Of a stretch of 52,717 bases of DNA, positions 2,681 through 44,383 are shown one piece after another. Position numbers and translations under genes: made by a program. Below the pieces are notes generated by a model. The model did no database searches. It saw only the letters and a program-made list of their open reading frames with translations, and was not told the DNA's origin. How positions within the stretch are numbered: the first letter of the stretch is position 1; each line of letters opens with the position of its first letter. This stretch comes from a virus (lineage: Duplodnaviria; Caudoviricetes), in the IMG/VR virus record IMGVR_UViG_3300035701_000046, positions 1-52,717 of that record; one strand, 5' to 3'.

Positions 2681-2866
2681 TCATTCCGGCATCGGCGGAT
2701 CTGATTTGTTCCCGAGAATCCAATCGATTGCCGCGACAACGCCATCCTCGTATGTCCCCATTTCGGGACGTTCCCTTCCCGCTTCGCGGTCATCGATACT
2801 ATCCATCGCCTTCTGCGCCTGGTCGTCGATCTCCGCTTTGGTCCGTTCTGTTATTAAGTTCTCCAT
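2681..2866 (-). CDS. small hypothetical protein
   Basis: 61 aa, AGGA SD, 'TYEDGVVAAIDWILG'. Confidence 0.65.
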   Translation of the reverse strand: MENLITERTKAEIDDQAQKAMDSIDDREAGRERPEMGTYEDGVVAAIDWILGNKSDPPMPE

Positions 2867-2911
2867 TCTTTCCTCACATTCTGTTAGTGGGCCTTTCGAC
2901 GACGCCGGGCT

Positions 2912-3835
2912 TTACTCGTGCTCTGGCGGTTTTATGGCATATTCCTTCTCGACGAATCCGGGCAGACGGCCATGTACCATAGTGTGCCGTACCCAAATCC
3001 GTCGGCCATCCCAGAGCCGACGAATATGACCACGTCTGAAATGAGAACGGAATCCAGGACCAGTGCCTGTCGAAGTATGTGGTGAGTCCCAAACTTCTGA
3101 ATCAACGACTAAAACCTTGTACGAATATAGTGGAGTTCTATCTCTTCGTTTTCTCGCGCGTACCAGCTTTTCAGGGGGGGCTATATCCCTCGTTTTGACG
3201 TTATGAAGTGAGAGCATTACCATGAGGTTCAGTGCCGCGCCGAAATCGGTAAGGTACTCATTAACTACTTTCGCAGGATCCAATCCCCCTGCTCGTAGCT
3301 TTTCCTGCATGCTTGGAGAAAGCGCCGAAGTTGCTTGGAACCCTGGGCCGTGATCAGGAAGGAACATGACTGCCGCTGTCCCCTCTGTCATCCATCTCGG
3401 ATATTCAGACTTGAAATACGATGTACTAAAAACGTAGAAAGCGCGTCCTGGACCGTCTTCTTTGAAACGTTCTTCTACGAATCTTTTCCCGACAGCGCCT
3501 GCGTTTGAAAAGACAAGCGTGATTTTCCATCCTCGGCAGATGATCTTAAATTCTGATCCCGTCTCTGGCGTGTCTTCTCTCAGAAATTCTTCGGTGAGAA
3601 TAATCGTAGGCTCGGCTGGCAGCCTTATCGTTGCCTTCAAATCTTCTGTGATCACATTTGTCTCACCAAGAATCATGGCAGCATCGGGCAAGTAGAAACG
3701 TTGCCCGAATTTCAAACCTCTCGCCAATAACACGAGATTGGTAGCGACACTGGGATCTGAACTGCGATCATTGACACACCGTGTAGCCAATTCTCGGATA
3801 TCTTTCTCGGCTTGTGTGAACTTGGACCAGTGCAT
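2912..3835 (-). CDS. hypothetical phage protein with C-terminal H-x-RRGH-x-R motif
   Basis: 307 aa, GGAG SD, 'RSHFRRGHIRRLWDGRRIWVR'. Confidence 0.8.
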   Translation of the reverse strand: MHWSKFTQAEKDIRELATRCVNDRSSDPSVATNLVLLARGLKFGQRFYLPDAAMILGETNVITEDLKATIRLPAEPTIILTEEFLREDTPETGSEFKIICRGWKITLVFSNAGAVGKRFVEERFKEDGPGRAFYVFSTSYFKSEYPRWMTEGTAAVMFLPDHGPGFQATSALSPSMQEKLRAGGLDPAKVVNEYLTDFGAALNLMVMLSLHNVKTRDIAPPEKLVRARKRRDRTPLYSYKVLVVDSEVWDSPHTSTGTGPGFRSHFRRGHIRRLWDGRRIWVRHTMVHGRLPGFVEKEYAIKPPEHE

Positions 3836-3848
3836 ATTGCTCCATCAA

Positions 3849-3976
3849 TTCCCGCGTGTCGGTTGGTCTGGTGCTGTCAGGGAGAATTGCAAAGCCCTTT
3901 TGCCCATTTGCCGTTATTTCCGACTTTGCAGGGCGCGACCTCACCGCTACTAGCGTAACGTTCGCGGACGCGGGAA
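3849..3976 (-). ncRNA. candidate structured leader RNA, motif copy A
   Basis: 9-bp closing stem TTCCCGCGT/ACGCGGGAA; shares CCGC..GCGG-TGAGG layout with 12685-12782. Confidence 0.5.
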
Positions 3977-3989
3977 CTCGTTATGACCC

Positions 3990-4169
3990 CTAGACCCCGA
4001 GGTCCGGCGCTGCGCTTTTCTCGATGAGGTCTCGAACCCGTGCGATCTCGCCTTCGACTTGCTCCGCCATGACGGCGGCGTCTTTGGCTTCGGCGAGGAA
4101 CTTGTCCCGCCTCTTTTCGAGACGCTTGATCTCGCTCTCCAACGACTTCTTCGCTCTGGTACTCAGCAT
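3990..4169 (-). CDS. small coiled-coil protein (below ORF-track cutoff)
   Basis: 59 aa MLSTRAKKSLESEIKRLEKRRDK..., AAGGAG SD. Confidence 0.65.
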   Translation of the reverse strand: MLSTRAKKSLESEIKRLEKRRDKFLAEAKDAAVMAEQVEGEIARVRDLIEKSAAPDLGV

Positions 4170-4192
4170 CGTTGCTCCTTCCGTGGTTTTGG

Positions 4193-4381
4193 TTACTCTC
4201 CTCTGGTCAGGATCGCAATCTCTCCTGCCAACTCCTGATGATAGCGACGGCTGACCGGCGTCGAGGCCGGTTTCGCCTGGGATTTATGGTGATAGTAGAG
4301 CTTCAGCAGTAACGCTCGTTGTCGTTTCTCGATTTCTAACAGCCTGTTGAGCTGCGAAGCAAAGTCTTCAAGATTTTCCAT
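4193..4381 (-). CDS. hypothetical protein
   Basis: MENLEDFASQ..., GAGG SD, packed operon. Confidence 0.5.
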   Translation of the reverse strand: MENLEDFASQLNRLLEIEKRQRALLLKLYYHHKSQAKPASTPVSRRYHQELAGEIAILTRGE

Positions 4382-4904
4382 CGGGCCTCTCTCGTGAGCG
4401 ATCACCACAGAACTTCTCTTCCAGAAGGTCAATGCGCGCTCTCTCTATCTGGATGTCTCCTGGGTCGCATTCGTCCGCGCAGAGATCAACCCAACCTCTC
4501 CAGGCCCCATACGCCTCTTTGAGCGCGGTCTTCATCTCATCGAAAGTAGTAATGACCCACTCACCCGAACCGCCGGATCTCACATGGCGGAGTTCTATCT
4601 GTAGACGTTCTTCAAGTGAAAAAGCCATCTCCACCTCCCTCTGACCGATTGGACATAGGTCAAAGGGATGCTGTCGGCATCTGGCGCATTCGTCAAGATG
4701 CTTATGGAACTGGTCGGGATTCGCTGTCGGCACATCTCCGTCTGGCCTTGTGCCGTGCATACGGTCCGTGACATTCGGGAAGTACCTCTTGAGCATCTCG
4801 CCTGGCGTCATTCCCTTCTCCGGGAATCTCTGACTGAGGCTCTTACACTGCTCACACGTCTCTTCGGGTCCTTCCCAGTAGTTGCACCAGATGTGATGAC
4901 CCAT
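4368..4904 (-). CDS. hypothetical protein with Cys/His clusters
   Basis: 178 aa, GGAGG SD; HHIWC..CEQC and HLDECARC..C. Confidence 0.65.
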   Translation of the reverse strand: MGHHIWCNYWEGPEETCEQCKSLSQRFPEKGMTPGEMLKRYFPNVTDRMHGTRPDGDVPTANPDQFHKHLDECARCRQHPFDLCPIGQREVEMAFSLEERLQIELRHVRSGGSGEWVITTFDEMKTALKEAYGAWRGWVDLCADECDPGDIQIERARIDLLEEKFCGDRSRERPDGKS

Positions 4905-5065
4905 CTCTTCCCTCCGTTTACCCGCCGACGCTTCGAGCGACGAGAATCACGATCCCGACGAAAAGCCCTGCTAAGGCGGCGATTGTTGCGATTACGATGA
5001 CGATCGCCACTACGAGCACGAACAAATCTCGAATCGCCGAGAACAATTTCGTCCTTTCGGTTTCC

Positions 5066-5407
5066 TCACGGCTCTGCTTGATACTCGGCTGTCGTCCGCC
5101 AATCTCGCTTCGTCCATATCCGCGCTGCTCGCGCCTTCCTCTCCTCATGAGCGAGTTTCCATGCTTCCTCAGAGAGTTGACACCAGCAGGGGGACTGCGT
5201 TAGATGTCCGATTCGCTTCGCTATCTTTTTCAGGTCTTCAGAGCAGATTCGTCCGAACTGGATGAACCCGCTTTGGTGCCATTTCTCCGCGATCTCGAAA
5301 TCCTCGCGATTCATGTGGGCCGTCTTAACCCGTCCGGCGTCCACTACCTGTGTCTCCAGAAAGAGGAGAAGGCTTCTCTCCTCTTTCGTCATTTCTGCGA
5401 GCGTCAT
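5066..5407 (-). CDS. hypothetical phage protein
   Basis: MTLAEMTKEERSLLLFLET..HMNREDFEIAEKW; AGGAG SD. Confidence 0.7.
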   Translation of the reverse strand: MTLAEMTKEERSLLLFLETQVVDAGRVKTAHMNREDFEIAEKWHQSGFIQFGRICSEDLKKIAKRIGHLTQSPCWCQLSEEAWKLAHEERKARAARIWTKRDWRTTAEYQAEP

Positions 5408-5423
5408 GTCTACTCTCCTGGTG

Positions 5424-5741
5424 CTAAGCTGATGGCTTACGATAACGGGGTTCTCCGTGTAACGGACAGAACGCCGTTCCCTCTGTCGGGTTGCACTCAC
5501 AAGCGCGGTCTCCGATATTAGGCGGGGCATCGAAGGCGGCAATGGCGGCGCAAACTTCCGCGTCGGCAACGGTGTGCTCTTCAAGTGTTGACGCATCTAT
5601 TTTCTTTCTCGCCGCCTCGATGAGCGGCTTGACTCGCTCCGCGTGGGCGTCCCAACCGGCATCGAACGCCGTTGGTGTCATCGGTTGCAGCGGTGCGCTT
5701 GTTGTCCACCACTCCTCAAACGCCCTATCCTTGTCGGTCAT
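5424..5741 (-). CDS. hypothetical protein
   Basis: 105 aa; ATGA coupling with upstream gene. Confidence 0.6.
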   Translation of the reverse strand: MTDKDRAFEEWWTTSAPLQPMTPTAFDAGWDAHAERVKPLIEAARKKIDASTLEEHTVADAEVCAAIAAFDAPPNIGDRACECNPTEGTAFCPLHGEPRYRKPSA

Positions 5742-5938
5742 TCGGCCACCCCCTTGCTCTTCAAAATGATCTGCTCAAAGTGCTGGATGTAGTGGATCGA
5801 TCCACTCTCGTGCCGCACACGCCAACAATCGCCCGTCGCCTGGGGTACGTAGAGCACCAGGCAGTTGTGCATAGAGGCATCGTCGCCAAAGTAGATGTTT
5901 ACCAGATCGCCCTCTTGAATCTTGTCCTTGTCGATCAT
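5738..5938 (-). CDS. small beta-rich hypothetical protein
   Basis: 66 aa, GGAGG SD, ATGA coupling. Confidence 0.65.
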   Translation of the reverse strand: MIDKDKIQEGDLVNIYFGDDASMHNCLVLYVPQATGDCWRVRHESGSIHYIQHFEQIILKSKGVAE

Positions 5939-6123
5939 GGCTTGGCCTCCTCAATCTCGCATTTGCACGGCCACGACCCGCTACCCCACCCGCATATAGG
6001 ACATATCCATCGAGCGCCACACGCGCAATTACCCTCGCCGGTCCACGGCTCCGGCTTTGGTTGATTCCATTTGTACGGGCGTAGGTCTGGATGGTGGCAA
6101 ATATGCTGCTCTTTCCCACTCAT
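5935..6123 (-). CDS. small Zn-finger protein
   Basis: CxC/CxxC clusters, ATGA coupling at both ends. Confidence 0.55.
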   Translation of the reverse strand: MSGKEQHICHHPDLRPYKWNQPKPEPWTGEGNCACGARWICPICGWGSGSWPCKCEIEEAKP

Positions 6124-6329
6124 TTCCCCTCCCTTGCAATCCGTTGGCACACGCGGGAGGCGGCAATAGCGTCGGAAAGCGCCATCTGTTTGTCGGACAC
6201 CTCAAACTCCTCGCACGCCTCGTAGTCCACCGCCGCCCTCAACACCGGCTCCACGTCGGCGCGGTAGGTGGTGAAGTCGTCCGGCTGATCTCTTATCGGC
6301 TCACCAGGATCGCTGTATTTCTCGCTCAC
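6120..6329 (-). CDS. hypothetical protein
   Basis: 69 aa, GGAGG SD, GTG start. Confidence 0.55.
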   Translation of the reverse strand: MSEKYSDPGEPIRDQPDDFTTYRADVEPVLRAAVDYEACEEFEVSDKQMALSDAIAASRVCQRIAREGK

Positions 6330-6345
6330 TTCTTTCCTCCCTTGA

Positions 6346-6834
6346 CTACCCGGAAACAGGGGATCGTTTGGCCCATTTCTGGCAAAGCATCATGTGGCCT
6401 CGGGCCGCGTCCCACGCCTTGTTGTATCCAGTGAAATCAAGTTCTAGCCCCGATATTTGTGGAAGCCCGCAACCGCAGTCTTTCGATACACACGGATCTC
6501 CCGCCCTGAATACCATCGTCTCGTATTTGCGATCATAGCCGATGTACGCGAATCCAAACTCTTTCATGTAGGCGTGGTCAAAATCGTCGCCGCGAAGTTG
6601 CTGGTTAGCAACTAGCCAAGCTGGTTTGTAGACCTTCGCGTGTATTTCTCTGCTCCCGCGCTCCGGCCAGTACTCTCCGACCGTCGATATGAGCCACGGG
6701 CCAACCTTCGTGCAAAGATGAAAACGGCACCACTGGGCGCAGATGAAGTGCCCGGCGTGCCCGAACCACTTCCACCGCTGTTTTGGAATCGGCCTATCCC
6801 TCGTGACCCAGACCCTCATGGTTTTCTTCGGCAT
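6346..6834 (-). CDS. hypothetical phage protein
   Basis: 'WKWFGHAGHFICAQWCRFHLCT..STVGEY..YETMVF'; start uncertain. Confidence 0.7.
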   Translation of the reverse strand: MPKKTMRVWVTRDRPIPKQRWKWFGHAGHFICAQWCRFHLCTKVGPWLISTVGEYWPERGSREIHAKVYKPAWLVANQQLRGDDFDHAYMKEFGFAYIGYDRKYETMVFRAGDPCVSKDCGCGLPQISGLELDFTGYNKAWDAARGHMMLCQKWAKRSPVSG

Positions 6835-6853
6835 GGCTTCGTATATCGGATTC

Positions 6854-7405
6854 TTACTCAATCGGCAATGCCTGAACATCCCACTGGAGCAAACCGTCCA
6901 GGGGCCTTTCGTCTTTCACGGGCCGACGCACTCGGACAAACACGCCGCTACTCTGAGGATCCGGGTCTATGCGCTCAATCTCCATATCCGCAAACGCAAG
7001 TCGCATTATTTCTGCCGTGAAACGCCAGTGATCTCCGGGATAGTCGTGTCGTCCAAAACCAGGCCCGCGAGTCGTAAGCATCAACACTCCACCAGGCTTG
7101 AGCGTCTGTTTCATCGCCACCACAGCCTCTTTCCAACGCTCGGCGTGTTCCAGCATTTCTGTACTGACAACCAAGTCGAATTGTGATGGCATTTCCTTGC
7201 CGACGTCGCAAACGTCCATCACTTTATCCACCCCTAACCCGGCCTGTAGATCGATGCCCAAGTAGTAAAGCGGCTTGAAAGCCTTCAGCAACCCGCGCCA
7301 AGATCCATTCACGTCTAACGAACCCGCTTCCAGAACGGTCTTTCCCTTGACATCTTCTTCCTTGATGTTTTCCTGTCCCCACCGCAACACTGATTGATGA
7401 CACAT
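6854..7405 (-). CDS. class I SAM-dependent methyltransferase
   Basis: 'VLEAGSLDVNGS', 'FDLVVSTEMLEH', 'LKPGG', 'HDYPGDHWRF'. Confidence 0.88.
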   Translation of the reverse strand: MCHQSVLRWGQENIKEEDVKGKTVLEAGSLDVNGSWRGLLKAFKPLYYLGIDLQAGLGVDKVMDVCDVGKEMPSQFDLVVSTEMLEHAERWKEAVVAMKQTLKPGGVLMLTTRGPGFGRHDYPGDHWRFTAEIMRLAFADMEIERIDPDPQSSGVFVRVRRPVKDERPLDGLLQWDVQALPIE

Positions 7406-7410
7406 CGCCG

Positions 7411-7632
7411 CTAACTCTTTTCCAGCAGATCCGCTAGCTGTGCATCTGTGAGATCCAACAAAACCCGTAGCACGATTTCCTCATTCACCAAACCACCGCA
7501 GAGGACGTGGGGAATATCATGCCGCTCGTTTTCTTCTTCAAACGCCAGGTTCTTTACCGTAAGCGGAAGACCACAACTAGGACATTGCTCCACTGAGTTC
7601 GTCCTCTCGACCTTATACCTTTTTAGTTTCAC
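7411..7632 (-). CDS. small Zn-ribbon protein
   Basis: CPSCG..HVLC. Confidence 0.5.
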   Translation of the reverse strand: MKLKRYKVERTNSVEQCPSCGLPLTVKNLAFEEENERHDIPHVLCGGLVNEEIVLRVLLDLTDAQLADLLEKS

Positions 7633-7683
7633 GCCAAGTTCGTCTAGCCAGATTCGCTTCCCAAGGCAACATCTGCAGATTTG

Positions 7684-7983
7684 CTAGCCCTCCACCGGAT
7701 CGTATGTCGCCGCGAAGATGTCCGGCTTGCAGGGATAGAGTTCGCCCTTGACGCCGCGTATGATGTAGTCTCCCCACGACACAGATAACGTGCCCTCTTT
7801 TGTGCCAATCAACAGCCGATGGCGGGCTGTATCTGTTGGATCAATAAACAGCGCACCTTCTCCGATCGGCTCATTCCACGCGAGATTCAGCCAGTTCGGC
7901 CACTCGCTGTTGTCCGACCGCCTAGCCTCCGTCATTTGGAAAGCCTCAATCACAACCGGCTTTTTCCTGAACTTGTAGTTCAT
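7684..7983 (-). CDS. conserved phage protein (KKPVVIEA..GDYII..YPCKPDIF family)
   Basis: characteristic motif string; AAGGAG SD. Confidence 0.85.
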   Translation of the reverse strand: MNYKFRKKPVVIEAFQMTEARRSDNSEWPNWLNLAWNEPIGEGALFIDPTDTARHRLLIGTKEGTLSVSWGDYIIRGVKGELYPCKPDIFAATYDPVEG

Positions 7984-8012
7984 CTCGTCTCCTTCCGCCC
8001 GCCGTAGCGGGG

Positions 8013-8294
8013 TTACTTCCCCTCTTGTCCGAACACCTCGGCGCGGATCGCGGCCTTGTGACAGGAGAACGCGCACGGCGTTTCTTCGCATTCACAGAGG
8101 CTATCGTGAAATGCATCCGACAAAGCCAGAATCTCTCTCAACCTCTCTCGCAGCGTGGCGATCTCCTCCCGCTGTGCCGCGTCGTGGGAATCAATAAAAT
8201 CTTGCGCCGCGTTTCGTTCTGATGGAGTTGGGCTGTTTAGCGAGCGCATCTGATATTCAAATACTTCCCTCGTCAACGCCCTGCTATCGGTCAT
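8013..8294 (-). CDS. hypothetical protein
   Basis: ATGA coupling with upstream gene; coiled coil plus Cys cluster. Confidence 0.55.
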   Translation of the reverse strand: MTDSRALTREVFEYQMRSLNSPTPSERNAAQDFIDSHDAAQREEIATLRERLREILALSDAFHDSLCECEETPCAFSCHKAAIRAEVFGQEGK

Positions 8295-8647
8295 TCTCTC
8301 CCTCCTTTCCATTCTTCCCAGTCTTCACCATCGGATAACACAGCAAACTTCCATACCCAAGAAGACCCGTCTACGTAGAGCCTAGGAAAATCCCAAATGT
8401 TCTGCTCATCGGACGTATACCGAACACGCTCCAGGGGAAGTCCTGGCATCTGTATTTCGTGGCAACGCTGCCCGCGCCACACTAGGAACGCATACCGGCC
8501 CTCCCCGTAGTCCAGCCCCGGCACCCTCACCCATGACAGATCCAACTTGTCGCAATCAGTGACGAAGTGCTTGATGTTGTTTATGGCGTTCTCCTCGGTG
8601 GCTCCGTCAACCGGCCCCGCCCCGGGATTAATTATTACCATGCTCAT
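8291..8647 (-). CDS. hypothetical phage protein
   Basis: 118 aa, purine-rich SD, 'IQMPGLPLERVRY..FPRLYVDGSSW'. Confidence 0.7.
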   Translation of the reverse strand: MSMVIINPGAGPVDGATEENAINNIKHFVTDCDKLDLSWVRVPGLDYGEGRYAFLVWRGQRCHEIQMPGLPLERVRYTSDEQNIWDFPRLYVDGSSWVWKFAVLSDGEDWEEWKGGRE

Positions 8648-8759
8648 TTCCCTCTCCCTCCGTTAGTGGGGCGCTGGCCGCGTGGTCCCGAATTGGACAT
8701 TTGCGGAACTCCCACACAGTCACCAGCGCCCCGTATCTTGCCCCGCGTGTCGGTTGAAC

Positions 8760-9107
8760 CTAGACGGGGAGCTTCCCCTGTCGATCTTCCGGGGGGATCG
8801 AGGTCTCTCGCACGAGCGCGCCGTTATCCTTGCGGAACCACATTTTCTTGTCGTCGGTGAAGTTGAGAACGACCTTGCACGAGACATTCCTGTATTCCCG
8901 ACCGGTTGAGATCTTCATCGCCGCGATCGTCGCATCGGCTTTGGCAAGTGCGATCTGCGCTCCGATCTCTTTCGCGAGGGAAGCCTTTTGCTCTTCGAGC
9001 GTTTCGATTCTTTGGGTCCGTTCCGCGAGGATGGACCCGGCTTCCTTGATTTCTTCGGGCGTCAATTCGCAGGCGACGTACAAGGTTTCGGTGATATCCT
9101 CGGCCAT
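8760..9107 (-). CDS. hypothetical coiled-coil phage protein
   Basis: 115 aa, GGGAG SD. Confidence 0.75.
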   Translation of the reverse strand: MAEDITETLYVACELTPEEIKEAGSILAERTQRIETLEEQKASLAKEIGAQIALAKADATIAAMKISTGREYRNVSCKVVLNFTDDKKMWFRKDNGALVRETSIPPEDRQGKLPV

Positions 9108-9108
9108 A

Positions 9109-9393
9109 TTAGCTCCCTTCGCTTTTCTGTGAGTGGCCTTTTTCGTAACTCCCGTTCTTCAAGGCTTTCCAGTCTTCGTCTTTCATGCGGCGGTAACGAC
9201 CTTTGAGGATGCGGCGGCATTCGTAGCAAAGGCATCGCGGCACAAAATCCCAAATGCCATCTTCGAAGATCTTATACGGACCCCCCAAATCCCAGCTCGA
9301 TGAATCACAATATCCGCATCGGGCTTCTGGACTCCTGGCAGGGCCGTCATCCAATCCCTCTTCGCCGTTATCGTCACGTTCTCTTTGCCTCAT
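9109..9393 (-). CDS. CGYC..CxxC zinc-finger protein, paralogue 1
   Basis: ATGA coupling at 9390-9393; aligns with 9713-9925. Confidence 0.6.
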   Translation of the reverse strand: MRQRERDDNGEEGLDDGPARSPEARCGYCDSSSWDLGGPYKIFEDGIWDFVPRCLCYECRRILKGRYRRMKDEDWKALKNGSYEKGHSQKSEGS

Positions 9394-9728
9394 TCGAACT
9401 TCCACTTTTCCTTCATCCGGGCGATGAGATCCCGCTCCTCGCCTTTTTTGGACCGCTGCGATGCGTCCATCCACCGTTCCCAATAGCGAACCGCTTTCTT
9501 GAGATCCCGGCGCATCGCGTCCTTCTCGCGGATGAGTTCCTGAGTTTGCTCGAAGACGTTCTTATTCCTGAGTACCGCTATCTCAAAAGCCTGGGTGGTG
9601 ATCACCATCGAGCGGTTCAGCTCGCGGAGCGCACGCTTCCGGCGATCAGACTTCCTCTTGGTTTGTTCTAGCTGCTCCTGGAGATTTCCTACCAATTCTC
9701 CCGCCGCTCTTTCTATTTGGTCTGACAT
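9390..9728 (-). CDS. coiled-coil hypothetical protein
   Basis: MSDQIERAAG..., GAGGG SD. Confidence 0.65.
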   Translation of the reverse strand: MSDQIERAAGELVGNLQEQLEQTKRKSDRRKRALRELNRSMVITTQAFEIAVLRNKNVFEQTQELIREKDAMRRDLKKAVRYWERWMDASQRSKKGEERDLIARMKEKWKFE

Positions 9729-9925
9729 GTTTCCCTCACGTATCTGAAGTTCCCTCGGAAATACTTCCGGCACGTACCGCATAGTCTTCGTGCGACTGGG
9801 TCCCAACTGCCGTCTTCACATCGAAGCTGCGCGGGGCGACTTACGTCGTCGCTTGGGGAGCAGCAGTATCCGCACTTTTCCCTTGGGATCTCCCGAGTAT
9901 CTCTTTCGTCATCATCTCGTCGCAT
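9713..9925 (-). CDS. CGYC..CxxC zinc-finger protein, paralogue 2 (start uncertain)
   Basis: CGYC-S-S-D..EDG-WD-V-R-LC--CR shared with 9109-9393. Confidence 0.5.
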   Translation of the reverse strand: MRRDDDERDTREIPREKCGYCCSPSDDVSRPAQLRCEDGSWDPVARRLCGTCRKYFRGNFRYVRETCQTK

Positions 9926-10089
9926 TTTGAGCACCGATAGAGAATCGTTGTGACGCCAAACGACAAGCGTTCGAGCGTCTTCATTGTGCCGTCAGTGTCG
10001 TCGGAGGAACCTTCGCCGCTGACTTGTGCCGCAGCCGGAGAAGCGTAGAATCTCTCGACCTCTTTGTAGTCGTGTTCACATTCGCTCAT
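9841..10089 (-). CDS. small Zn-ribbon protein
   Basis: CEH..CSKC; GAGGTG SD; first gene after promoter at 10119-10148. Confidence 0.65.
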   Translation of the reverse strand: MSECEHDYKEVERFYASPAAAQVSGEGSSDDTDGTMKTLERLSFGVTTILYRCSKCDEMMTKEILGRSQGKSADTAAPQATT

Positions 10090-10118
10090 GTGACGCACCT
10101 CTCTTCACAGGAGGAACG

Positions 10119-10148
10119 ATCATCCCACAGAGGCGATGCCTTTGTCAA
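10119..10148 (-). promoter_or_regulatory. sigma70-like promoter of leftward early operon
   Basis: TTGACA-N18-GATGAT with TGTGG before -10; resembles 12634 and 37375. Confidence 0.65.
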
Positions 10149-10182
10149 GAATTATTGTAGTTTACAAGCAGGAGATCGACAG

Positions 10183-10704
10183 TCAATCGGGCCAGGAATC
10201 CGTGCAATCCGTCTCGGGCCGTAAAGGCTTGTCCCACGAGTCTGTCACCGGGGCCTCGGCTTCTCGCGCTCGGGCGAGCGCCTTACAATACTCCGAGGTC
10301 CAGTATTCACTCGCGAGGTCTCCGATGCTCAGGCGGGAAAAATGGTGGGCAAGAAGCCAATCGACGAAGCCGGTCCCGATCTGGATGCGCTCGCGGTAGA
10401 GTGGCCCCCACTCGGCTTCTCGGGAGAATGGCGGCAACTCCCGCCACCTCGCATTGTGCTCCGGGAACATTTCCTGGCGTAGGTGCGCCATCATCCGGTG
10501 GACACGCTCGAAGTATCGAGGGGAACTGATCTGTGGCGCTGAGACCCCGTTCGACTTCTTGAACGCTTTTCGGAAATGCTCTATGATCTCCTGGAGTGCC
10601 CGGCGATCAAGCGTGATCGGATCGAGGGGATTGTCGCCGCGCGGGCGCAGCGGGGGACCTACAACGAAGGAAAGCTCAGGCTCGTGGCAACGCTTTGTCG
10701 TCAT
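10183..10704 (-). CDS. hypothetical protein
   Basis: ~173 aa, AGG SD. Confidence 0.55.
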   Translation of the reverse strand: MTTKRCHEPELSFVVGPPLRPRGDNPLDPITLDRRALQEIIEHFRKAFKKSNGVSAPQISSPRYFERVHRMMAHLRQEMFPEHNARWRELPPFSREAEWGPLYRERIQIGTGFVDWLLAHHFSRLSIGDLASEYWTSEYCKALARAREAEAPVTDSWDKPLRPETDCTDSWPD

Positions 10705-10833
10705 CGTCGGACCTACCTTCAACGGAATGTGGAGCGGAAAGGCGAGACCAACGGATACGCTCCAATTCTACAGAGACCCTGCCTCATGGCAAGGCCGTTT
10801 TCCGCGAGCGGGGGACAAACCTGTGGGAAAAAG

Positions 10834-10842
10834 TTATCCACA
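10834..10842 (+). promoter_or_regulatory. DnaA-box consensus
   Basis: TTATCCACA in a divergent intergenic region. Confidence 0.5.
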
Positions 10843-10904
10843 TTTTTTTTCGAGCCAGGGCAAAAAAGACTTGCGGTATAAGCTAAGTCGGCGTTTATAG
10901 TCTT

Positions 10905-11253
10905 GACTCGTGTGATACCCTGCGACGGGGTGGGCGGGGAATAAGCATGTACAAGCATCTGTGGTAACCCGGTCGAAGACCGACTGCCGGAGTGGAACCT
11001 CTCCAAAACCATCTTTCTACACAAGTTCCAATCCGCCAGGAACCCCCCGAGAACGGTGTGGGGTAGCAGGAAACCCCTACAGCCTCCGCCTTCCGTTCAG
11101 GCACAAGGATCCCTGGCTTGGACAAAACGATACCGATGGCTTGGGAGGGTAAACAAAACGGTATCGCTGGCACCACCCAACCCCACCGAGCGGCTCGCGA
11201 GCCAGCTCGCTCGCGAATCCGAATAGCAGTCGGTCCCCCCGTCAAAGAGAGTC
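10905..11253 (+). ncRNA. candidate large structured ncRNA (~350 nt)
   Basis: nested long-range stems 10924-30/11237-43, 10978-87/11226-35, 11051-56/11093-98, 11128-35/11159-66; no credible ORF. Confidence 0.6.
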
Positions 11254-11299
11254 GCCCCCAAGAGGCCCGGATTCTGTGTCCAGTTGTAAGGAGGTTTCC

Positions 11300-11920
11300 A
11301 TGATAGAAATCATCTGTATTCTTGACCGAAGTGGGTCAATGACGAGGATAAAGAACGATGCGATCGGATCCTTCAACACGTTCCTGACCGAGCAGCAGAA
11401 GGTCCCCGGTGACGCGGTCGTGACGGTGGTGCTTTTCAACGACGAGTACCGGGCGCTCTATGAGCAGAAACCGCTCGCGGAGGTCCCGCTCTTGACCGAA
11501 GAGACGTATCAGACGACTGGGTCCACGGCGCTCCTCCACGCGATCTGCCGGACCCTCGAAGCTCCCGACAAGCCGGAGCGCGGTATCGTCGTGATCCTCA
11601 CGGATGGCGAGGAGAACGCTTCCCCGGTGGAGTACACCAAGGAACGCGCGGCGAAGGCCGTGAAGGCGCTGGAGGACAAGGGCTGGCAGGTCCACTATCT
11701 GGCGGCGAACCAGGATGCGTTCGCGGAAGGGGCGGCCCTCGGGATCACCCATACGTTGAACTATGCCGCGACGCCCGATGGAATCCGGCACGCTTATGCG
11801 GTGGCCGGTCAATCGACGATGTGCTATCGTACCGGATTCCCGCCGCATGTGACGTTGCCCGATGGGACGACGGCGGATCCGATCGCGTTCCAGAGCACGA
11901 CGACCGATGGAAAAGACTGA
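11300..11920 (+). CDS. von Willebrand factor A domain protein
   Basis: MIDAS 'ILDRSGSM', 'GSTAL', 'VILTDGEENAS', 'YLAANQDA'; AAGGAGG SD. Confidence 0.93.
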   Translation: MIEIICILDRSGSMTRIKNDAIGSFNTFLTEQQKVPGDAVVTVVLFNDEYRALYEQKPLAEVPLLTEETYQTTGSTALLHAICRTLEAPDKPERGIVVILTDGEENASPVEYTKERAAKAVKALEDKGWQVHYLAANQDAFAEGAALGITHTLNYAATPDGIRHAYAVAGQSTMCYRTGFPPHVTLPDGTTADPIAFQSTTTDGKD

Positions 11921-12626
11921 CCGGATTCTCACTGGGGATGCCCTGACCGTTCTCGGGACGCTTGATTCGGAGAGCGTCCAATGCTGTGTCACGTCGCCCC
12001 CGTATTGGGGGCTACGTGACTACGGCACGGCGACGTGGGAAGGTGGGGACGCGGCGTGCGACCACAGGGTAGGTGGGCAGGTGCCGGACAACAAAGCTCC
12101 GGGCGCAATAGTAACCGGCCAACGACCGGGCGTTGACGCGAGCGTGTGCCGCAAGTGCGGTGCTTGTCGAATCGACGACCAACTCGGCCTTGAATCCACG
12201 CCGGAGGAGTATGTCGCCCACATGGAGGCGATCAAGGAACCAATGGCCGAGGCGTCTGCGGCAAGGTATGAATACTCGTTCGGCGGGGAAAAGAACATCC
12301 GACTAAAGGCAACAGATAAGCCAACCGCTCTTGTCGGAAACAGAGATGTCACCGATGGCCGTAACCGCCGCTCGGTCTGGACGATCACGACGAAGCCTTA
12401 CAAAGAGGCCCACTTCGCCACGTTCCCCCCGGAAATCCCCAAGCTGTGCATCCTCGCGGCAACGAGGCCGGGCGATGTCGTCCTCGACCCCTTCTTGGGG
12501 AGCGGGACGACGGCTGCGGTTGCCCTGGAATTCGGCAGGCGCTACATCGGGATCGAGCTGAAGGCGGAGTACGTCGAACTCGCGAGGATGCGGTTGAAAC
12601 AGACTAACGTCGGTCTCGGGATTTGA
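11907..12626 (+). pseudogene. beta-class N4/N6 DNA methyltransferase with apparent in-frame internal deletion
   Basis: TSPPY, HFATFP, VLDPFLGSGTT, GIEL present; the core between 'PEEYVAHM' and 'EAIKEP' is missing. Confidence 0.7.
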
Positions 12627-12633
12627 ATAATTC

Positions 12634-12662
12634 TTGACAACCCCATCGGGACGTGAGAAGAT
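12634..12662 (+). promoter_or_regulatory. sigma70-like promoter
   Basis: TTGACA-N17-GAAGAT. Confidence 0.65.
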
Positions 12663-12684
12663 CGCCCGGCTAAGTTGTCGTTGT

Positions 12685-12782
12685 CCGAATTCCCCGTGTC
12701 CGCGAAAGCGGTGAGGAGCAAAGGCCCGGAACACTGTCTGTTCGCGGGCGATGGAATCCAAAGACAGCGCGGGGCAATTCGG
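12685..12782 (+). ncRNA. candidate structured leader RNA, motif copy B
   Basis: closing stem CCGAATT-CCCCGTG/CGCGGGG-CAATTCGG, CCGC-GAAA-GCGG hairpin, CTGTCT/AGACAG stem. Confidence 0.55.
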
Positions 12783-12806
12783 TATCTCAAGGAAGGAAGG
12801 TTGACG

Positions 12807-13328
12807 GTGAAACTCATCGAGGCGATGAAGCGGATCAAAGAGCTTCAGCAGAAGGCGGACGATATCAAGAAGAAGGTCGCGGATAACTGCGCCCTTCTCT
12901 CGATCGAGACGCCGGTGTACGGGAAGGATCAGATCACGCAGATCACCGGCTGGCTCCAGTCGTGTTCGGACATCAGGAAAGAGATTCTGAGACTCCGAGT
13001 CGCGATTCAGCGGACGAATCTGGAGACCAAGGTCGAGGTCGATTTCGGCGAGCCTACGGGCCGCGTGACGAAGACGCTTGCCGAATGGATCCACCGGCGG
13101 CGCGATCTGGCGAAAGCGGATGAGACTCTCTGGATGTCTCTCACTGACCGGAATCTGAAAGAGCAGAGGGTTTCCTCGGGTCCGGCCCAGCCGGGTACGG
13201 ATATCACGATCATTCGGTTCTTCAACCCGGTACAGCGGGATCAGATGATCGCGCTTTACCGGGCGGAGCCGGGGATCATCGACCGGACGCTTGAAGTGAC
13301 GAATGCGATCACCGATCTGATCGAGTAG
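12807..13328 (+). CDS. coiled-coil protein resembling the DIP1984/DUF6847 family
   Basis: GTG start after AGGAAGG; 'MKLIEAMKRIKELQ..IQRTNLET..TLAEWIHRR..LEVTNAITDL'; family assignment from memory. Confidence 0.65.
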   Translation: MKLIEAMKRIKELQQKADDIKKKVADNCALLSIETPVYGKDQITQITGWLQSCSDIRKEILRLRVAIQRTNLETKVEVDFGEPTGRVTKTLAEWIHRRRDLAKADETLWMSLTDRNLKEQRVSSGPAQPGTDITIIRFFNPVQRDQMIALYRAEPGIIDRTLEVTNAITDLIE

Positions 13329-13335
13329 GTTTTTG

Positions 13336-13659
13336 TCGCAGCTTACGTGAGGAGATAAAAACCGGCAGTAGTGTAGCGACTCGACTACAGTTGAAACCCG
13401 TAGTCACGCCTGAAAGGGCACAGGTTTATGGAACCTGCAATTAAAAACCTCGTCGGACTTGAAATCCGATGCGATCCTTCAAGGATGCAAGGTTCAAGAC
13501 CCAAGGCAGTAAGGCTCAAGTCGAGTAAGGCAGCAAGACGCAAGAGAGTAAGGATGGAACGCTGAGGCCGCAAGGCGAGTAGGCGAATGTCCTCGGACAA
13601 GTTATCGTACTACACTCCGGCCCGGATACTTCTGAGGCTTCCCTCCTGGGAAGCTGCGA
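13336..13659 (+). ncRNA. candidate structured ncRNA with a YAAG repeat tract
   Basis: terminal stem TCGCAGCTT/AAGCTGCGA, inner stem AGTGTAG/CTACACT, four local hairpins, ten YAAG units at 13480-13552. Confidence 0.75.
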
Positions 13660-13702
13660 TTTAAGACGATTGTTGACGTTGAACAAGAAAGGGGAACGGA
13701 TA

Positions 13703-17458: not shown

Positions 17459-17500
17459 AAAACCCGAATTGTAGGTTTATACCAGCCCATAGTATGGAGG
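17459..17500 (+). repeat. 42-bp exact repeat, copy 1 (promoter + RBS cassette)
   Basis: AAAACCCGAATTGTAGGTTTATACCAGCCCATAGTATGGAGG identical to 44341-44382. Confidence 0.9.
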
Positions 17501-17524
17501 TCGTGTATTCGACGAGGGGGCGTA

Positions 17525-18349
17525 ATGTCCGAACGTCCGAAGACCCCCGAGCTGTCCATTGTGGATGGCGGCAAGCCAGAGGGACAGGCGGGCCAATCCC
17601 GTCCCGAGGGTTTACCGGGGCAGAAATGCTTGGCGCGGCGTCGTGTTTGCGCATGCACTCACCGCTTCGTCAAGGATGAGCGGATCGTCGATCGTGATCT
17701 ATCTGTGCGTATGCGGCCAGATTACGACCGGCGAAAGCTAGGGGTTTGCCCTAGCTGTGGGCTGGTCCGCGAACTCTGCGGCCAGCCTGCGGTAGAAGGC
17801 CGTTATGTTTGCCGCTTCCACGGCGGTAAAGCAGGCCGGAAGCCGATGGTCCCTGTTATTCACGCTCTCAGGGACGAAGACCGCGATGCTGTCGTCGCTT
17901 CGATCGAAGCGAAGGACGAAAACCTCACCGTCGAATTCCACGTCGTCAAGCACATCCTCGATTCCGTCCTCACCCAGTACGACCCCGAACTCGCTGACCT
18001 AGATTTCGCTGAACGCGCTGTCGCGCTGCTCGATCGTGTTTCTTCGATCGGCGAGCGTCGGGCGCGTCTACGTCTGCTTGTCCCGCCAGACCTAGAGAAG
18101 CTCAAGCTCGACTTCGGGGATCCTCGTGTTTCGCTCGCCATCAAAGAAAAGATGCGAGACAACTACGAGAAGGCTATCCGGGGAACCGTTCAACTGATGA
18201 TCGAAGCGGTGAGGCGGGATCCCAAATTACTCGAAGGCGTTATCAAGCTCCTGCCTGAGCGGCTTCGGAACTACATCGAAGTCGTTTCGGCTCGACCCGC
18301 ACAATTCCAGATCACTCTACCAAATGCCCAAGAAACCCCGGAGCAGTAG
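17525..18349 (+). CDS. terS: putative terminase small subunit (HGG zinc-finger type)
   Basis: 'CGQPAVEGRYVCRFHGG'; directly upstream of and overlapping terL. Confidence 0.65.
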   Translation: MSERPKTPELSIVDGGKPEGQAGQSRPEGLPGQKCLARRRVCACTHRFVKDERIVDRDLSVRMRPDYDRRKLGVCPSCGLVRELCGQPAVEGRYVCRFHGGKAGRKPMVPVIHALRDEDRDAVVASIEAKDENLTVEFHVVKHILDSVLTQYDPELADLDFAERAVALLDRVSSIGERRARLRLLVPPDLEKLKLDFGDPRVSLAIKEKMRDNYEKAIRGTVQLMIEAVRRDPKLLEGVIKLLPERLRNYIEVVSARPAQFQITLPNAQETPEQ

Positions 18350-22928: not shown

Positions 22929-23630
22929 ATGGAAGAGCGCGAAGTTCAAAGAGAGGGCGGGGCCGATTCGGCCCCGCTCCTCGATCTCGGTGCTACCTTC
23001 GGGACCGGTGAACAGATCGTTGATGAGCCGGAAAAGCCGGGGCAGGTGCAGAAGCGAAAACCCGGTGAGGAGCTTCCCCGGAAGGTAGTAGATACGCAGT
23101 CTGGAAAGGTCCTCGACCTGGATACGGGAGAAGTCTCAACGCCTGAGCTAATCGAAATCTCCGGTGTTCAGATCGATGCCTCTGAATTCGGGCCTGGGGG
23201 CATGTACTGGCTCCAGACGATGTACGAGCAGTGGCTTGCGGCTGTCCAGGAAGATCGAGAATCTACCTTCAGCATCGAAGATGAAGGAGGAGTCGATTCT
23301 TCGAGGATCATTGACAAACTCAAAATCCATTACCCGCGTCCTGAGTATCTGAAGCTCTTGAAGCACCGGCGCGTTCAGAACCCGAGTGCCAAGGGCACGA
23401 TGTCGCAGGCGTACATCATTTGGAACCGCCATACGACGTTGGAACAGTGGCTCGCATGGACTGCTGCCACTCTACGTTGGCGAATTGATTACGAGATCGA
23501 TCGTCGGCGGATTACCCTGGCGTTGAAAGAGTTGGATGTCTCGAACGCGAAGACGGCATGTGAGAACTGCCTGATCGCTGCCGAGAAATTCTTGTCGTTG
23601 AGTGAGCGAAGGAGATTGATATCGATATGA
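22929..23630 (+). CDS. hypothetical protein
   Basis: 233 aa, ATGA coupling to downstream GT. Confidence 0.65.
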   Translation: MEEREVQREGGADSAPLLDLGATFGTGEQIVDEPEKPGQVQKRKPGEELPRKVVDTQSGKVLDLDTGEVSTPELIEISGVQIDASEFGPGGMYWLQTMYEQWLAAVQEDRESTFSIEDEGGVDSSRIIDKLKIHYPRPEYLKLLKHRRVQNPSAKGTMSQAYIIWNRHTTLEQWLAWTAATLRWRIDYEIDRRRITLALKELDVSNAKTACENCLIAAEKFLSLSERRRLISI

Positions 23631-24439
23631 GCATGACATTCGTGATCCCGTCACGCTCGACACCGGAGTCTGAAGAAAAAGTCAAAGTCGCCATGTCATC
23701 GATCCGCAAAGTCCGTGGGGCCGATGATGAAATCGTCGTGGTCCGTGATTGCCCGTCTATGGCTTTCGCGTACAACGAGGGGACCCGCCGGGCGGCCAAT
23801 GAGCGGATCGTTTTCATGCACGATGATGTCGAGTTGCGACCGAGCGAATACTGGTCGGATGCAGTCCTCGATGCGATCTTCCAAAAATGGCCCGTGGGAT
23901 TCTTGGGGGTTGCCGGTTCGAAAGACATGTTCCCGGATGGCCGGTGGTATATCGACGGGAATAGAATGTGCGGGGCGTGCTTCCACGCGCAGATATTCGC
24001 CCCAAACCAAGCTGCCCCGGAGGGATCCACGAGACTCCCAGACGGTAGGCAATACCAAGAATGGTATACGGCCTACGGGGATTTCGGTCGGGTCGTTGTC
24101 CTCGATGGGGTGCTTCTCATCTCGACGAAAACTGTCCTTTCGAAGATCGGCGGCTTCGATGAGGAAACTTTCAAAGACACGTGGCATTACTACGATCTCG
24201 ATGTGACGCTCCGGGCGCATCTCGCCGGGTTCCATAACATAACGGTCCCGCTTTTTATCTGTCATCTTAGTCCCGGAAGTTACAACGATAAATGGGCGCA
24301 GACCAAGGATGCTTTCCTTCGAAAGTGGTTCCCCCAACTTCCCGTTCTTCTCGATTTCGAACATGACTACACCGTCCAAGCCCTTAGACACATTCAGCTC
24401 GGACAAGCTGGACCTCCAGGACCCGAAATGGCGGGATAA
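23627..24439 (+). CDS. GT-A fold (GT2-like) glycosyltransferase
   Basis: 'AYNEG', 'FMHDDV', 'VLDGVLL', 'GGFDE', 'HYYDLD'. Confidence 0.9.
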   Translation: MSMTFVIPSRSTPESEEKVKVAMSSIRKVRGADDEIVVVRDCPSMAFAYNEGTRRAANERIVFMHDDVELRPSEYWSDAVLDAIFQKWPVGFLGVAGSKDMFPDGRWYIDGNRMCGACFHAQIFAPNQAAPEGSTRLPDGRQYQEWYTAYGDFGRVVVLDGVLLISTKTVLSKIGGFDEETFKDTWHYYDLDVTLRAHLAGFHNITVPLFICHLSPGSYNDKWAQTKDAFLRKWFPQLPVLLDFEHDYTVQALRHIQLGQAGPPGPEMAG

Positions 24440-27558: not shown

Positions 27559-27753
27559 GTGGATCGGATCGTCCGAGGGCTTCCGTGGGACGGGTTTCGA
27601 GAGAACAGGCCGAAACCCGACAAATTCCTTGCCATGCGTAATTGGAAGACAGTATCCTGCCCTAAATGTAGATGGGAGTGGCGTGTGTTGAGTCGATGCC
27701 GGTTCTGTTGTTGCCCGAGATGCTCGCAGGATTTCATTTCTGAAGAGCGTTGA
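27559..27753 (+). CDS. small Zn-ribbon protein
   Basis: CPKC..CPRC. Confidence 0.5.
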   Translation: MDRIVRGLPWDGFRENRPKPDKFLAMRNWKTVSCPKCRWEWRVLSRCRFCCCPRCSQDFISEER

Positions 27754-28631
27754 TGTTGAAAATTCTGCTAACCAACAATCATCTCTATCGACGGGGCGGG
27801 TCGGAGACCTTCACTTACGCGCTGGCCGAGGAGTTTGCCCGGCGCGGTCATGCCGTCTCTATCTTCACAATCGAGCCAGGGGTTCTCTCTCTACAGATAC
27901 CGGCGACTGTTGTCGAAGAGCCAAAGGGAGATTACGATCTTATCCTTGTCTCTCACAATACCTGTCTCCCGCGAGTAAGCCGATGTGGAGGTCCGAAAGT
28001 CCTCACTTGCCACGGCATATTCCCGTCGCCGGAGCAGCCGACCAAGGGCGCTGATCACTACGTCGGTATCTCTGAGGAAGTTTGCACCCATCTCTCGCGA
28101 AAGGGATATCCGAGTACGCTCATCAGGAATGGGATCAACTGCCGGGAATTCGCTTCTCTCCATCCGATTCGGCAGAAGCTGAAATCTGTCCTCTGCCTGG
28201 CGCAGAGCGACAAAGCTCGTTCGAAAGTCTATCTCGCCTGTAAGAAGCTCGGTCTTGAACTCGCGATGGGCGACAACGAACCCAACGTGGTCCAGTGGAT
28301 GAATCGAGCCGATATCGTTGTTTCTCTGGGCCGAGGAGCCTACGAGGCGATGGCGTGTGGTCGGGCCGTGTTGATCTTCGATGAACGATGGTATATGCCG
28401 AATCCTGGCGTAGGCGACGGGCTTGTTACGCGGGACAACTGGAAGAAACTTGCTGAGTGTAATTTCTCGGGGCGGGCTACGGGGAAAGTCTTCGAAGTAG
28501 AGGACCTTGAGAAAGAGTTCTCCCGTTATGAACCCTCGATGGGAACGGTCAATCGGGAGATCGCGGTTGAGAATTTCAACGTCGAGGGTCAGGTAGACAA
28601 GTATCTGGCCCTTGTTGGTATTCGGGAATGA
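27753..28631 (+). CDS. GT-B fold (GT4-like) glycosyltransferase
   Basis: 'KILLTNNHLYRRGGSET', 'IRNGI', 'ADIVVSLGRGAYEAMACG'. Confidence 0.9.
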   Translation: MLKILLTNNHLYRRGGSETFTYALAEEFARRGHAVSIFTIEPGVLSLQIPATVVEEPKGDYDLILVSHNTCLPRVSRCGGPKVLTCHGIFPSPEQPTKGADHYVGISEEVCTHLSRKGYPSTLIRNGINCREFASLHPIRQKLKSVLCLAQSDKARSKVYLACKKLGLELAMGDNEPNVVQWMNRADIVVSLGRGAYEAMACGRAVLIFDERWYMPNPGVGDGLVTRDNWKKLAECNFSGRATGKVFEVEDLEKEFSRYEPSMGTVNREIAVENFNVEGQVDKYLALVGIRE

Positions 28632-30148: not shown

Positions 30149-30459
30149 TTCGACCAGAGCCATTTCGCGAAAGCGTTCAGGAGATTCGGAGAAGAAATAA
30201 AGAGCTTGGAGAATTGGTGGCGGCACTGATCGGGGAATGGAATCGTCTCAAGAGAGCGAACCGACCCCTCGAAGACCCGCTTGTGCTCCTGATCGAGCGT
30301 TCTGCGGCGCGGGATTTTCTCGATTATCAACGTCGCGTTGAGGAGATCGAAGACCGTGGGGGAGATGCTGCTACGTTAGTGTGCGATCGGGAACTCATGG
30401 ACATGATCCAGGAAGAGTTCCCTTGTCTTGAACATCGATCTGAAGGGCTTGTGCATTGA
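30145..30459 (+). CDS. hypothetical protein
   Basis: GTGA/TTGA coupling at both ends. Confidence 0.55.
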   Translation: MIRPEPFRESVQEIRRRNKELGELVAALIGEWNRLKRANRPLEDPLVLLIERSAARDFLDYQRRVEEIEDRGGDAATLVCDRELMDMIQEEFPCLEHRSEGLVH

Positions 30460-37355: not shown

Positions 37356-37374
37356 TCGGGAACTATAATAAATC

Positions 37375-37403
37375 TTGACAAATCCAGAGCAGTGTGGGAA
37401 AAT
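37375..37403 (+). promoter_or_regulatory. sigma70-like promoter
   Basis: TTGACA-N17-GAAAAT with TGTGG before -10. Confidence 0.65.
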
Positions 37404-44382: not shown

Positions 44383-44383
44383 C

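Follow-up and report, generated by a model that had tools for sequence, protein, structure and literature searches.

A repeated leader element in a sediment phage genome: two full copies, a stub and a natural variant with a possible function in accessory gene leaders

Background

The virus record IMGVR_UViG_3300035701_000046 of IMG/VR (Duplodnaviria; Caudoviricetes) contains two intergenic sequences, here called copy A and copy B, which agree in a series of short blocks and each of which lies directly upstream of a gene. In the initial annotation these sequences had been taken for diverged copies of one structured leader RNA, possibly a cis-regulatory RNA or a ribozyme with a pseudoknot. The locus thus raises the question whether the two sequences are related and, if so, whether they act at the level of RNA or of DNA. 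The stretch of DNA that was analyzed, hereafter called the window, is the entire record of 52,717 nucleotides (nt) (52.7 kb, CheckV completeness estimate 41%). Here, a small repeat family that is very probably real is described, and it is tentatively interpreted, at a probability of about 0.4, as a functional low-copy intergenic leader cassette that is private to this phage lineage. The cassette comprises two complete copies and a stub, and at least one further copy stands in another place in a natural variant.

Sequence and position of copies A and B

Both copies read TTCCC(C)GYGT and CCGC, a loop, GCGG and TGAGG, followed further downstream by GCCC, GGGC and GACA(G)CGCGGG, exactly as previously described. 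The loop between CCGC and GCGG is GAAA in copy B and 16 nt long in copy A, which likewise agrees with the earlier description. The positions of the two copies and of their parts, including the helices P1 to P3, are the following:

3847..3978, minus strand: copy A, 132 nt, between an open reading frame (ORF) of 59 amino acids (aa) at 3990-4169 and a 307-aa ORF at 2912-3835
3978-3968 paired with 3857-3847, minus strand: P1 of copy A, 11 base pairs (bp)
3967-3964 and 3947-3944, minus strand: arms of P2 of copy A, with the 16-nt loop at 3963-3948
3943-3939, 3934-3931, 3905-3902 and 3866-3857, minus strand: blocks UGAGG, GCCC, GGGC and CCAACC-GACA of copy A
3947-3939: GCGGTGAGG in copy A
12685..12782, plus strand: copy B, 98 nt
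12685-12699 paired with 12767-12782, plus strand: P1 of copy B, 15 bp with C12775 bulged
12700-12703 paired with 12708-12711, plus strand: P2 of copy B with the loop GAAA
12712-12716 and 12724-12749, plus strand: UGAGG and P3 of copy B
12750-12766, plus strand: joining strand of copy B, containing CCAAAGACA

A nested scheme is common to both copies. The closing helix P1 is followed by the CCGC/GCGG hairpin P2, which is stacked directly on P1, by UGAGG and by the GCCC...GGGC helix P3, the distal parts of which are unrelated in A and B; a joining strand ending in CCAA..GACA then leads into the 3′ strand of P1. The ends of the element, UUCCC(C)GYGU ... RCGC(G)GGG..AA, are conserved in sequence and repeat each other imperfectly in inverted orientation. 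Both copies are located in mRNA leaders in sense orientation and both are closed by the long-range helix. The short distance to a Shine-Dalgarno sequence was also found as annotated, since the end of A is separated by 4 nt from GGAG, ahead of the ATG at 3835, and the end of B by 8 nt from a GGAAGGAAGG run ahead of the GTG at 12807.

A third site and natural variants

Besides the two full copies, a shorter third site was identified, which is directly followed by a long hairpin:

8735..8775, minus strand: copy C, a stub consisting of a P1-like 5′ arm, a 17-nt loop and the 3′ block; it has no P2 or P3
8664..8734, minus strand: separate hairpin immediately following C, irregular and about 26 bp long, within the ORF 8291-8647 leader
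8291..8647, minus strand: gene after C, 118 aa, no family

The 5′ arm of C lies inside the last codons of ORF 8760-9107, and C is located upstream of ORF 8291-8647. On the minus strand, positions 8756-8742 are identical to 3865-3851 of copy A in 15 of 15 bases and to the corresponding block of copy B in 14 of 15; at C this block sits directly past the stop codon of ORF 8760-9107. Exact repeats of at least 15 nt occur 8 times in the window (about 4 expected), and the one shared by A and C is intergenic at both sites, lies on the same strand and coincides with the block shared with B. The short hairpin of C folds at -13.8 kcal/mol (z -2.08). For the adjacent hairpin a minimum free energy (MFE) of -39.2 kcal/mol was predicted (z -4.17), with none of 200 shuffled sequences as stable. 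Judged by this predicted fold it is a candidate site for processing by a double-strand-specific nuclease, and it shows long leader helices to be a theme of this early operon.

Logan contigs from four sediment metagenome runs were aligned onto positions 2900-13400 of the window. A contig of 536 nt from one run (X5) follows the minus strand from 4270 to 3851 and then continues from 8741, with 15 letters that fit both sides of the joint. Across the joint, A is directly followed by the leader that precedes ORF 8291-8647, so that in this variant a full-length copy stands ahead of that ORF. Compared with A the contig has 7 extra letters, all of them within the P2 loop. In the contigs of the same run, positions 2900-3601 were not covered. 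In a contig from a second run (X2) the DNA methylase gene (11805 to 12618) is swapped for 83 other letters, with the joint 8 nt before the promoter of B; copy B and its gene are kept with 2 differences in 783 nt. This replacement marks the methylase gene as a variable cassette in the phage population. A, B and C are all intergenic and in sense orientation to the next gene, and across the variants three different genes lie downstream.

Statistical support for the repeat family

The local chain alignment of the two intergenic regions holding A and B scored 41.6, compared with 20.0 +/- 3.8 in dinucleotide shuffles, and none of 4000 shuffles reached this value. Among 349 pairs formed from 27 short intergenic regions A-B ranked second, behind a promoter pair. 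When whole sets of intergenic regions were shuffled, the best pair was at least equal to A-B in 10 of 300 sets. Taken alone, the relatedness of A and B therefore has modest, borderline statistical support. The repeat family is nevertheless taken as very probably real because the third site C shares the block and because this block is the joint of a natural variant. The earlier proposal that the two sites are related is thus probably correct in view of the pair shuffles, the intergenic rank, the third site and the variant joint.

Predicted folding and proposed function

In sense orientation copy B is predicted to fold at an MFE of -47.5 kcal/mol (z -4.40), a stability that none of 200 shuffles matched; the pair probabilities are at least 0.92 for each of P1, P2 and P3. 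In copy A the probability of P1 is about 1.

From these folds and from the position and orientation of the copies we infer a function at the level of the leader RNA. The two ends would pair in the mRNA leader to a GC-rich closing helix of 11-15 bp, bracketing an interior that may tolerate large insertions and deletions. The closing helix, the CCGC/GCGG hairpin stacked on it and the joining strands UGAGG and GACA could together form a site on the leader RNA for sequence-specific recognition or processing. As the sequence is conserved within the helix, a sequence-specific binder would be indicated, i.e. a regulator or a nuclease needing particular base pairs; the putative binder may be a phage regulator or a double-strand-specific nuclease. 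Its binding would set the expression of the next accessory gene, which is an AcrVA2-like gene in the case of A and a DUF6847 gene driven by an early promoter in the case of B. In the DNA itself, gene cassettes might additionally be exchanged at the conserved ends, which would serve as short homology patches. If the cassette is functional, it would show how one leader can be placed before differing accessory genes, probably genes of counter-defence, and help to shuffle them.

A more far-reaching version of this idea, which must be regarded as a long shot, is that A, B and the variant copy are operator RNAs of a small counter-defence regulon. The closing helix would then be a double-stranded RNA site for a phage regulator that couples the AcrVA2-like and the DUF6847 genes, and recombination at the ends would allow the leader to move from one accessory gene to another. 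One candidate for such a regulator is an 82-aa helix-turn-helix (HTH) protein that is encoded behind the third early promoter of the window. If true, the operator RNAs would represent a new, three-way-junction type of anti-defence leader RNA.

Evidence against the proposed function and alternative explanations

A number of results weigh against a functional leader cassette. With an MFE of -44.4 kcal/mol and z -1.48 copy A is not unusually stable in sense orientation (antisense z -1.01), its P2 has a probability of 0.00, and a B-like fold forced on A lies 4.0 kcal/mol above the MFE of A. Of the shared topology proposed in the initial annotation, P1 was therefore recovered in both copies, P2 was not recovered in A, and P3 reached a probability of 0.48 in A. 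The notion of a conserved topology with changed sequence did not hold, as the letters of P1, of P2 and of the basal part of P3 are identical between A and B except for single G-U/A-U changes; since the paired blocks common to both copies carry the same letters, there is no covariation. The helix does not extend over the ribosome-binding site. A covariance model built from B alone (R1) did not list A when the window was searched at E<=10, and it gave A 2.7 bits in a search of 388 bases; on C it scored 5.0 bits, with the two arms alone aligned. The joint between A and the leader of ORF 8291-8647 is supported by one contig of one run at a depth of 3.46 and with 100 nt past the joint. A scan of small ORFs in the neighborhood of A, B and C found no HTH gene, the sole HTH gene detected being the one at 37449-37697.

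The searches for further copies likewise count against the proposal. Pattern scans of IMG/VR found the rest of the motif in 0 of 38 stretches, judged by eye, and in 0 of 22, and in the second of these scans, which was evaluated by computation, the closing strand was present in 0 of 22. Among the matches listed, TTCCC was found upstream in 0 of 120 stretches from metagenome contigs, and a 9-bp closing helix in 2 of 120 stretches from genome contigs, without a copy of the element; the other motif blocks were absent in all 12 genome stretches inspected among the matches listed. The motif was also absent upstream of 9 homologues of the 173-aa gene that follows B, where no synteny was seen, and upstream of 25 of 28 loci with relatives of the 307-aa gene that follows A, the other 3 being partial matches. 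Close relatives of the phage were not found among IMG/VR viral contigs queried with the portal protein, DnaB and the 307-aa protein, or among genome contigs by protein-alignment search. In GenBank phages the DNA of the A region and of the B region had no match, and one weak protein match was obtained. Near-identical DNA was found in sediment metagenome runs only, with no RNA run listed among them. The element thus looks private to the lineage and not like a widespread regulatory RNA or ribozyme. A lack of further homologues had been named beforehand as a finding that would count against the element: none was detected in the other phages searched, and within the lineage the stub and the variant were added.

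Given these results, other explanations have to be considered. The repeat might exist at the DNA level only, as recombination or duplication scars or linkers that decay by insertions and deletions, with the stems as a by-product of the inverted repeat and with no RNA function. This is possible though rather doubtful. Copy A does resemble a decayed B, given its two large insertions, its z of -1.48 and its lost P2; C is a stub; B folds nearly as well in antisense as in sense orientation (z -3.45 vs -4.40); of the two variant joints, one coincides with the shared block and the other lies 8 nt ahead of the promoter of B; and conservation was not found outside the lineage. All three copies, however, are in sense orientation directly before genes, the blocks that were retained are those that pair or lie at the junction, the insertions in the variant avoid the stems, and the stability of B is extreme for a sequence of 98 nt (0 of 200 shuffles). 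That A and B are merely alike by chance, as two GC-rich intergenic stretches each holding a long-range helix, is improbable. Over the whole window A-B takes rank 83 of 20849 seeded pairs with a similar chain score, and the score of the ends only is 41, below the 43-46 of the best chance pairs, which weighs against a more than chance relatedness. The window is rich in helices of at least 9 bp within 160 nt, with 278 counted on the plus and 251 on the minus strand, about four exact 15-mers are expected anyway, and the model derived from B misses A. On the other hand, family-wise the score is reached in 10 of 300 shuffled intergenic sets, the block recurs at a third site and is precisely where the variant contig is recombined, and A and B have the same orientation relative to genes.

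The cis-regulatory RNA or ribozyme put forward in the initial annotation, read as a riboswitch that senses a ligand or a ribozyme that cleaves itself, with GCCC and GGGC forming a pseudoknot, is unlikely, and only a remote chance is given to this reading. The reading draws on the three-way-junction layout, the conserved joining strands UGAGG and GACA, the variable peripheral loops and one candidate compensatory pair, a 3-bp helix between the joining strands that is GGU:ACC in A and GGA:UCC in B, noted by eye in two sequences, which cannot establish it. Riboswitch and ribozyme classes are normally widespread; beyond the lineage, none of 60 viral stretches and none of the 120 metagenome and 120 genome stretches among the matches listed held a copy of the element, and the lack of covariation between A and B also led to the rejection of a generic riboswitch. 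With Rfam 15 at gathering thresholds the whole window gave no matches, and at E<=10 the regions 3700-4100 and 12600-12900 yielded 8 weak matches (E 0.63-7.8), none of them covering the elements; these lie outside A and B or partly overlap them, 7 of 8 on the element's own strand. The hairpins required for the pseudoknot had probabilities of 0.06 in A (UGCAAAG/CUUUGCA) and 0.00 in B (CUGUCU/AGACAG), the values referring to the hairpin helices. They are also not equivalent: the 3′ arm of the hairpin in B is the shared GACAG block, which in A is unpaired and located 32 nt downstream of the hairpin. Moreover, GCCC directly abuts the proposed hairpin in A with no nucleotide between them, and GCCC/GGGC in B is an ordinary nested helix. 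A type III hammerhead was rejected, as no model matched at E<=10 and, by the core numbering and by eye, positions 3 and 14 are wrong in both copies and position 9 in A; in a hammerhead layout 3-6 and 13-48 extra nucleotides would flank the second stem. The search for tRNAs found none, and the readings as a promoter inside the element or as a small ORF were dropped. Least probable of all is the insertion of an element resembling a miniature inverted-repeat transposable element (MITE) upstream of the genes. Terminal inverted repeats (11 bp in A, 15 bp with one bulge in B), a size of 92-132 bp, the lack of coding capacity and the variable interior would agree with it. A consistent direct target-site duplication is missing, however, the flanks being AGTT/AATT at A, AATT/AATT within a palindrome at B and AGCT/CAAG at C; only 2-3 copies exist, all in one orientation to genes, and neither the 240 stretches from genomes and metagenomes among the matches listed nor 60 viral ones contained a copy.

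Overall, the functional leader cassette is retained as the favored, tentative explanation. As the repeat is private to one lineage and the evidence for a function as RNA is weak, its general importance is considered low.

Promoter and genes around the copies

The surroundings of the copies comprise the following further features:

12626..12662, plus strand: early promoter-like site, consisting of AATAATTCTTGACAA, a 17-nt spacer and TG-n-GAAGAT
2912..3835, minus strand: AcrVA2-like gene after A, 307 aa
12807..13328, plus strand: gene after B, 173 aa, DUF6847/DIP1984 family

For the promoter-like site at 12626, which resembles sigma-70 promoters, the transcription start, as inferred from the spacing, would lie about 15 nt before copy B. 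The 15-mer AATAATTCTTGACAA occurs at 4 places with up to 3 mismatches (0.66 expected), and three of the matches are good ones (10156-10142 minus, 12626-12640 plus and 37367-37381 plus). They share one build, namely an AT-rich stretch, TTGACA, a spacer of 17-18 nt and TG-n-GAWRAT. The element follows the site at 12626 only; the site at 37367 precedes the gene for the 82-aa HTH_3 protein (37449-37697).

The 307-aa protein is assigned to Pfam PF26125 in precomputed annotation, and against AcrVA2-like clusters (Atlas) it reached a feature score of 0.97 and a template modeling (TM) score of 0.73. Its residues H265, R267 and H270, which form a C-terminal H-x-R-x-x-H motif, are invariant in 13 sequences. 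They match H286, R288 and H291 of AcrVA2, which are described as important for that protein (bioRxiv 10.1101/2022.11.29.518452). According to the same account, AcrVA2 triggers a translation-dependent loss of the Cas12a mRNA, and widely distributed homologues of AcrVA2 are carried by mobile elements, for the most part in the absence of Cas12a (bioRxiv 10.1101/2022.11.29.518452). Against the assignment it has to be noted that our own Pfam scan of the 307-aa protein gave no match and that profile searches of the PDB returned no AcrVA2 chain. By its sequence features the protein is classed with the AcrVA2-like family, with a predicted activity only. The G+C content at third codon positions is 0.46 in its gene, compared with 0.63-0.78 in seven other genes measured, and the gene was skipped by a gene caller based on codon usage; it looks recently acquired, with foreign codon usage.

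The 173-aa protein encoded after B matches Pfam DUF6847 (E 6e-4) and NCBIfam DIP1984_fam (E 1.4e-7), both below the cut-off. Its start is supported by nine homologues of 44-59% identity, all of which begin with MKLI. A different leader is found near genes of this family: the plus strand of the window at 13440-13702 and three other phage loci (L006, L007 and L008, at about 2780-3003) share a conserved non-coding leader with CAAG/AAGG-rich repeats and the block ACTTCTGAGGCTTCC. By eye, CCUCGGA pairs with UCUGAGG in this leader; L008 has changes on both sides and L006 on one side, and L007 does not fit. In L006-L008 this type of leader stands ahead of the DUF6847 gene, and here it is located after the DUF6847 gene and before a 54-aa ORF.

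A covarying leader RNA of AcrVA2-like operons in other phages

In other phages of IMG/VR a structured RNA of about 145-165 nt was observed to head AcrVA2-like genes or operons at 18 of 28 loci. A covariance model (R2) was built from 5 sequences of this leader and matched 18 of the 28 loci, 17 of them at E<1e-12. Leaders of this type are located at:

L205, 2740-2883
L215, 2820-2960
L211, 2643-2808
L196, 1176-1334
14 more loci

In an alignment of 12 distinct rows 97.2% of the cells are paired, and two-sided changes occur in 15 of 27 pairs; the alignment was fitted to the model, which biases it in favor of the structure. The covariation score was reached by 0 of 500 shuffles, and slid controls fell to 25-50% paired. 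No Rfam match was obtained in the 8 loci scanned.

Copy A resembles this RNA in that both are long, structured leaders of genes from one family. The two have no similarity in sequence or by model, however, as R2 gave no match in the window at E<=1, and the R2 leader covaries whereas A and B do not. Copy A is not a member of the R2 leader family and lacks comparable evidence. The covarying leader ahead of AcrVA2-like genes makes control of this family by leader RNA plausible in general. It is the more solid by-product of the present analysis and suggests that RNA-level control of the AcrVA2-like family may be common.

Other features of the phage record

Genes typical of tailed phages, i.e. those for a large terminase, a portal and a head protein, were identified in the window, together with genes for a DnaB-like helicase, a DnaC-like loader, a DNA methylase and an SNF2 helicase. 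Between terminase and portal a cluster of at least four genes of glycosyltransferase families is located (23627-24439, 27753-28631, 29468-30148 and 30456-31256), with one more at 31586-32899. An exact direct repeat of 42 nt (47 nt at 98%) is present at 17459-17505 and 44341-44386 and ends in GGAGG. Each of its copies lies just upstream of a gene, namely 17525-18349, ahead of the terminase, and the methyltransferase gene 44384-45028; the repeat is probably a shared late promoter with a ribosome-binding leader. The adjacent genes 46241-46985 and 47006-47721 are paralogous, with about 60-65% nucleotide identity over pieces of about 300 nt and no Pfam family in either. Finally, the 595 nt at 10705-11299 have no called gene, lie between divergent transcription units and contain GC-rich palindromes and T-runs. 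This stretch may be a control or origin region; one suspected repeat unit in it was searched for, and exact copies were not found.

Comparison with known systems

The early mRNA of phage T7 is processed by RNase III at intercistronic hairpins, which are single irregular hairpins. The present phage resembles T7 in having sequence-related long helices between early cistrons, namely the P1-P2 stack of copy B, which has 19 paired positions, and the neighboring hairpin at 8734-8664, which has about 26 bp. It differs in that the helix of the element ends in a three-way junction and is known from sequence and predicted folds.

The putL and putR RNAs of phage HK022, as described in PMC9378689, are two related structured RNAs which, like A and B, have a length of about 70-130 nt and lie on opposite strands in early transcription units. 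A further likeness is that one RNA is located just downstream of an early promoter and that two hairpins lie side by side (PMC9378689). In that description the put RNAs have no closing helix (PMC9378689). Convincing terminators were not found downstream of the elements studied here. For antitermination of the put type the position of B would be suitable but that of A would not, as A lies about 6.2 kb from the nearest recognized promoter (10156); the comparison was made by description, and Rfam holds no put model.

For anti-CRISPR operons, structured motifs in 5′ untranslated regions that are bound by Aca regulators have been described (PMC13551039). As far as that account goes, the likeness consists in a conserved helix derived from an inverted repeat in the leader of a counter-defence-type gene, and the same motif may stand before neighboring operons (PMC13551039). 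Here, in contrast, no adjacent HTH gene of the aca type was found when small ORFs near A, B and C were scanned. Moreover, the strands of the helix are 75-110 nt apart and do not form a compact hairpin as in the motifs described, and the ribosome-binding site is left uncovered.

At the DNA level a close precedent is offered by phages of the T4 type, for which recombination between repeated regulatory cassettes, the PeSLs, is described to reshuffle genes and to give mini-circles (PMC2839356). PeSLs join a sigma-70 promoter and a terminator stem-loop. Here the promoter is separate and is found before B only, the terminator search called no site at any of the three copies, and a PeSL-type unit of promoter and terminator was accordingly rejected. 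No copy is followed by a U-run either, the stem closes an interior of 17-110 nt, and there are three copies only. The likeness to the PeSLs, as far as these are described, lies in the short, repeated intergenic stem-loop cassettes among small accessory genes. It may extend to the joint in run X5, which connects the upstream side of A to the downstream side of C and would be of the circle or duplication type, as seen in one contig. If the cassette is functional, an unrelated sediment phage would have its own counterpart to the PeSL principle of T4.

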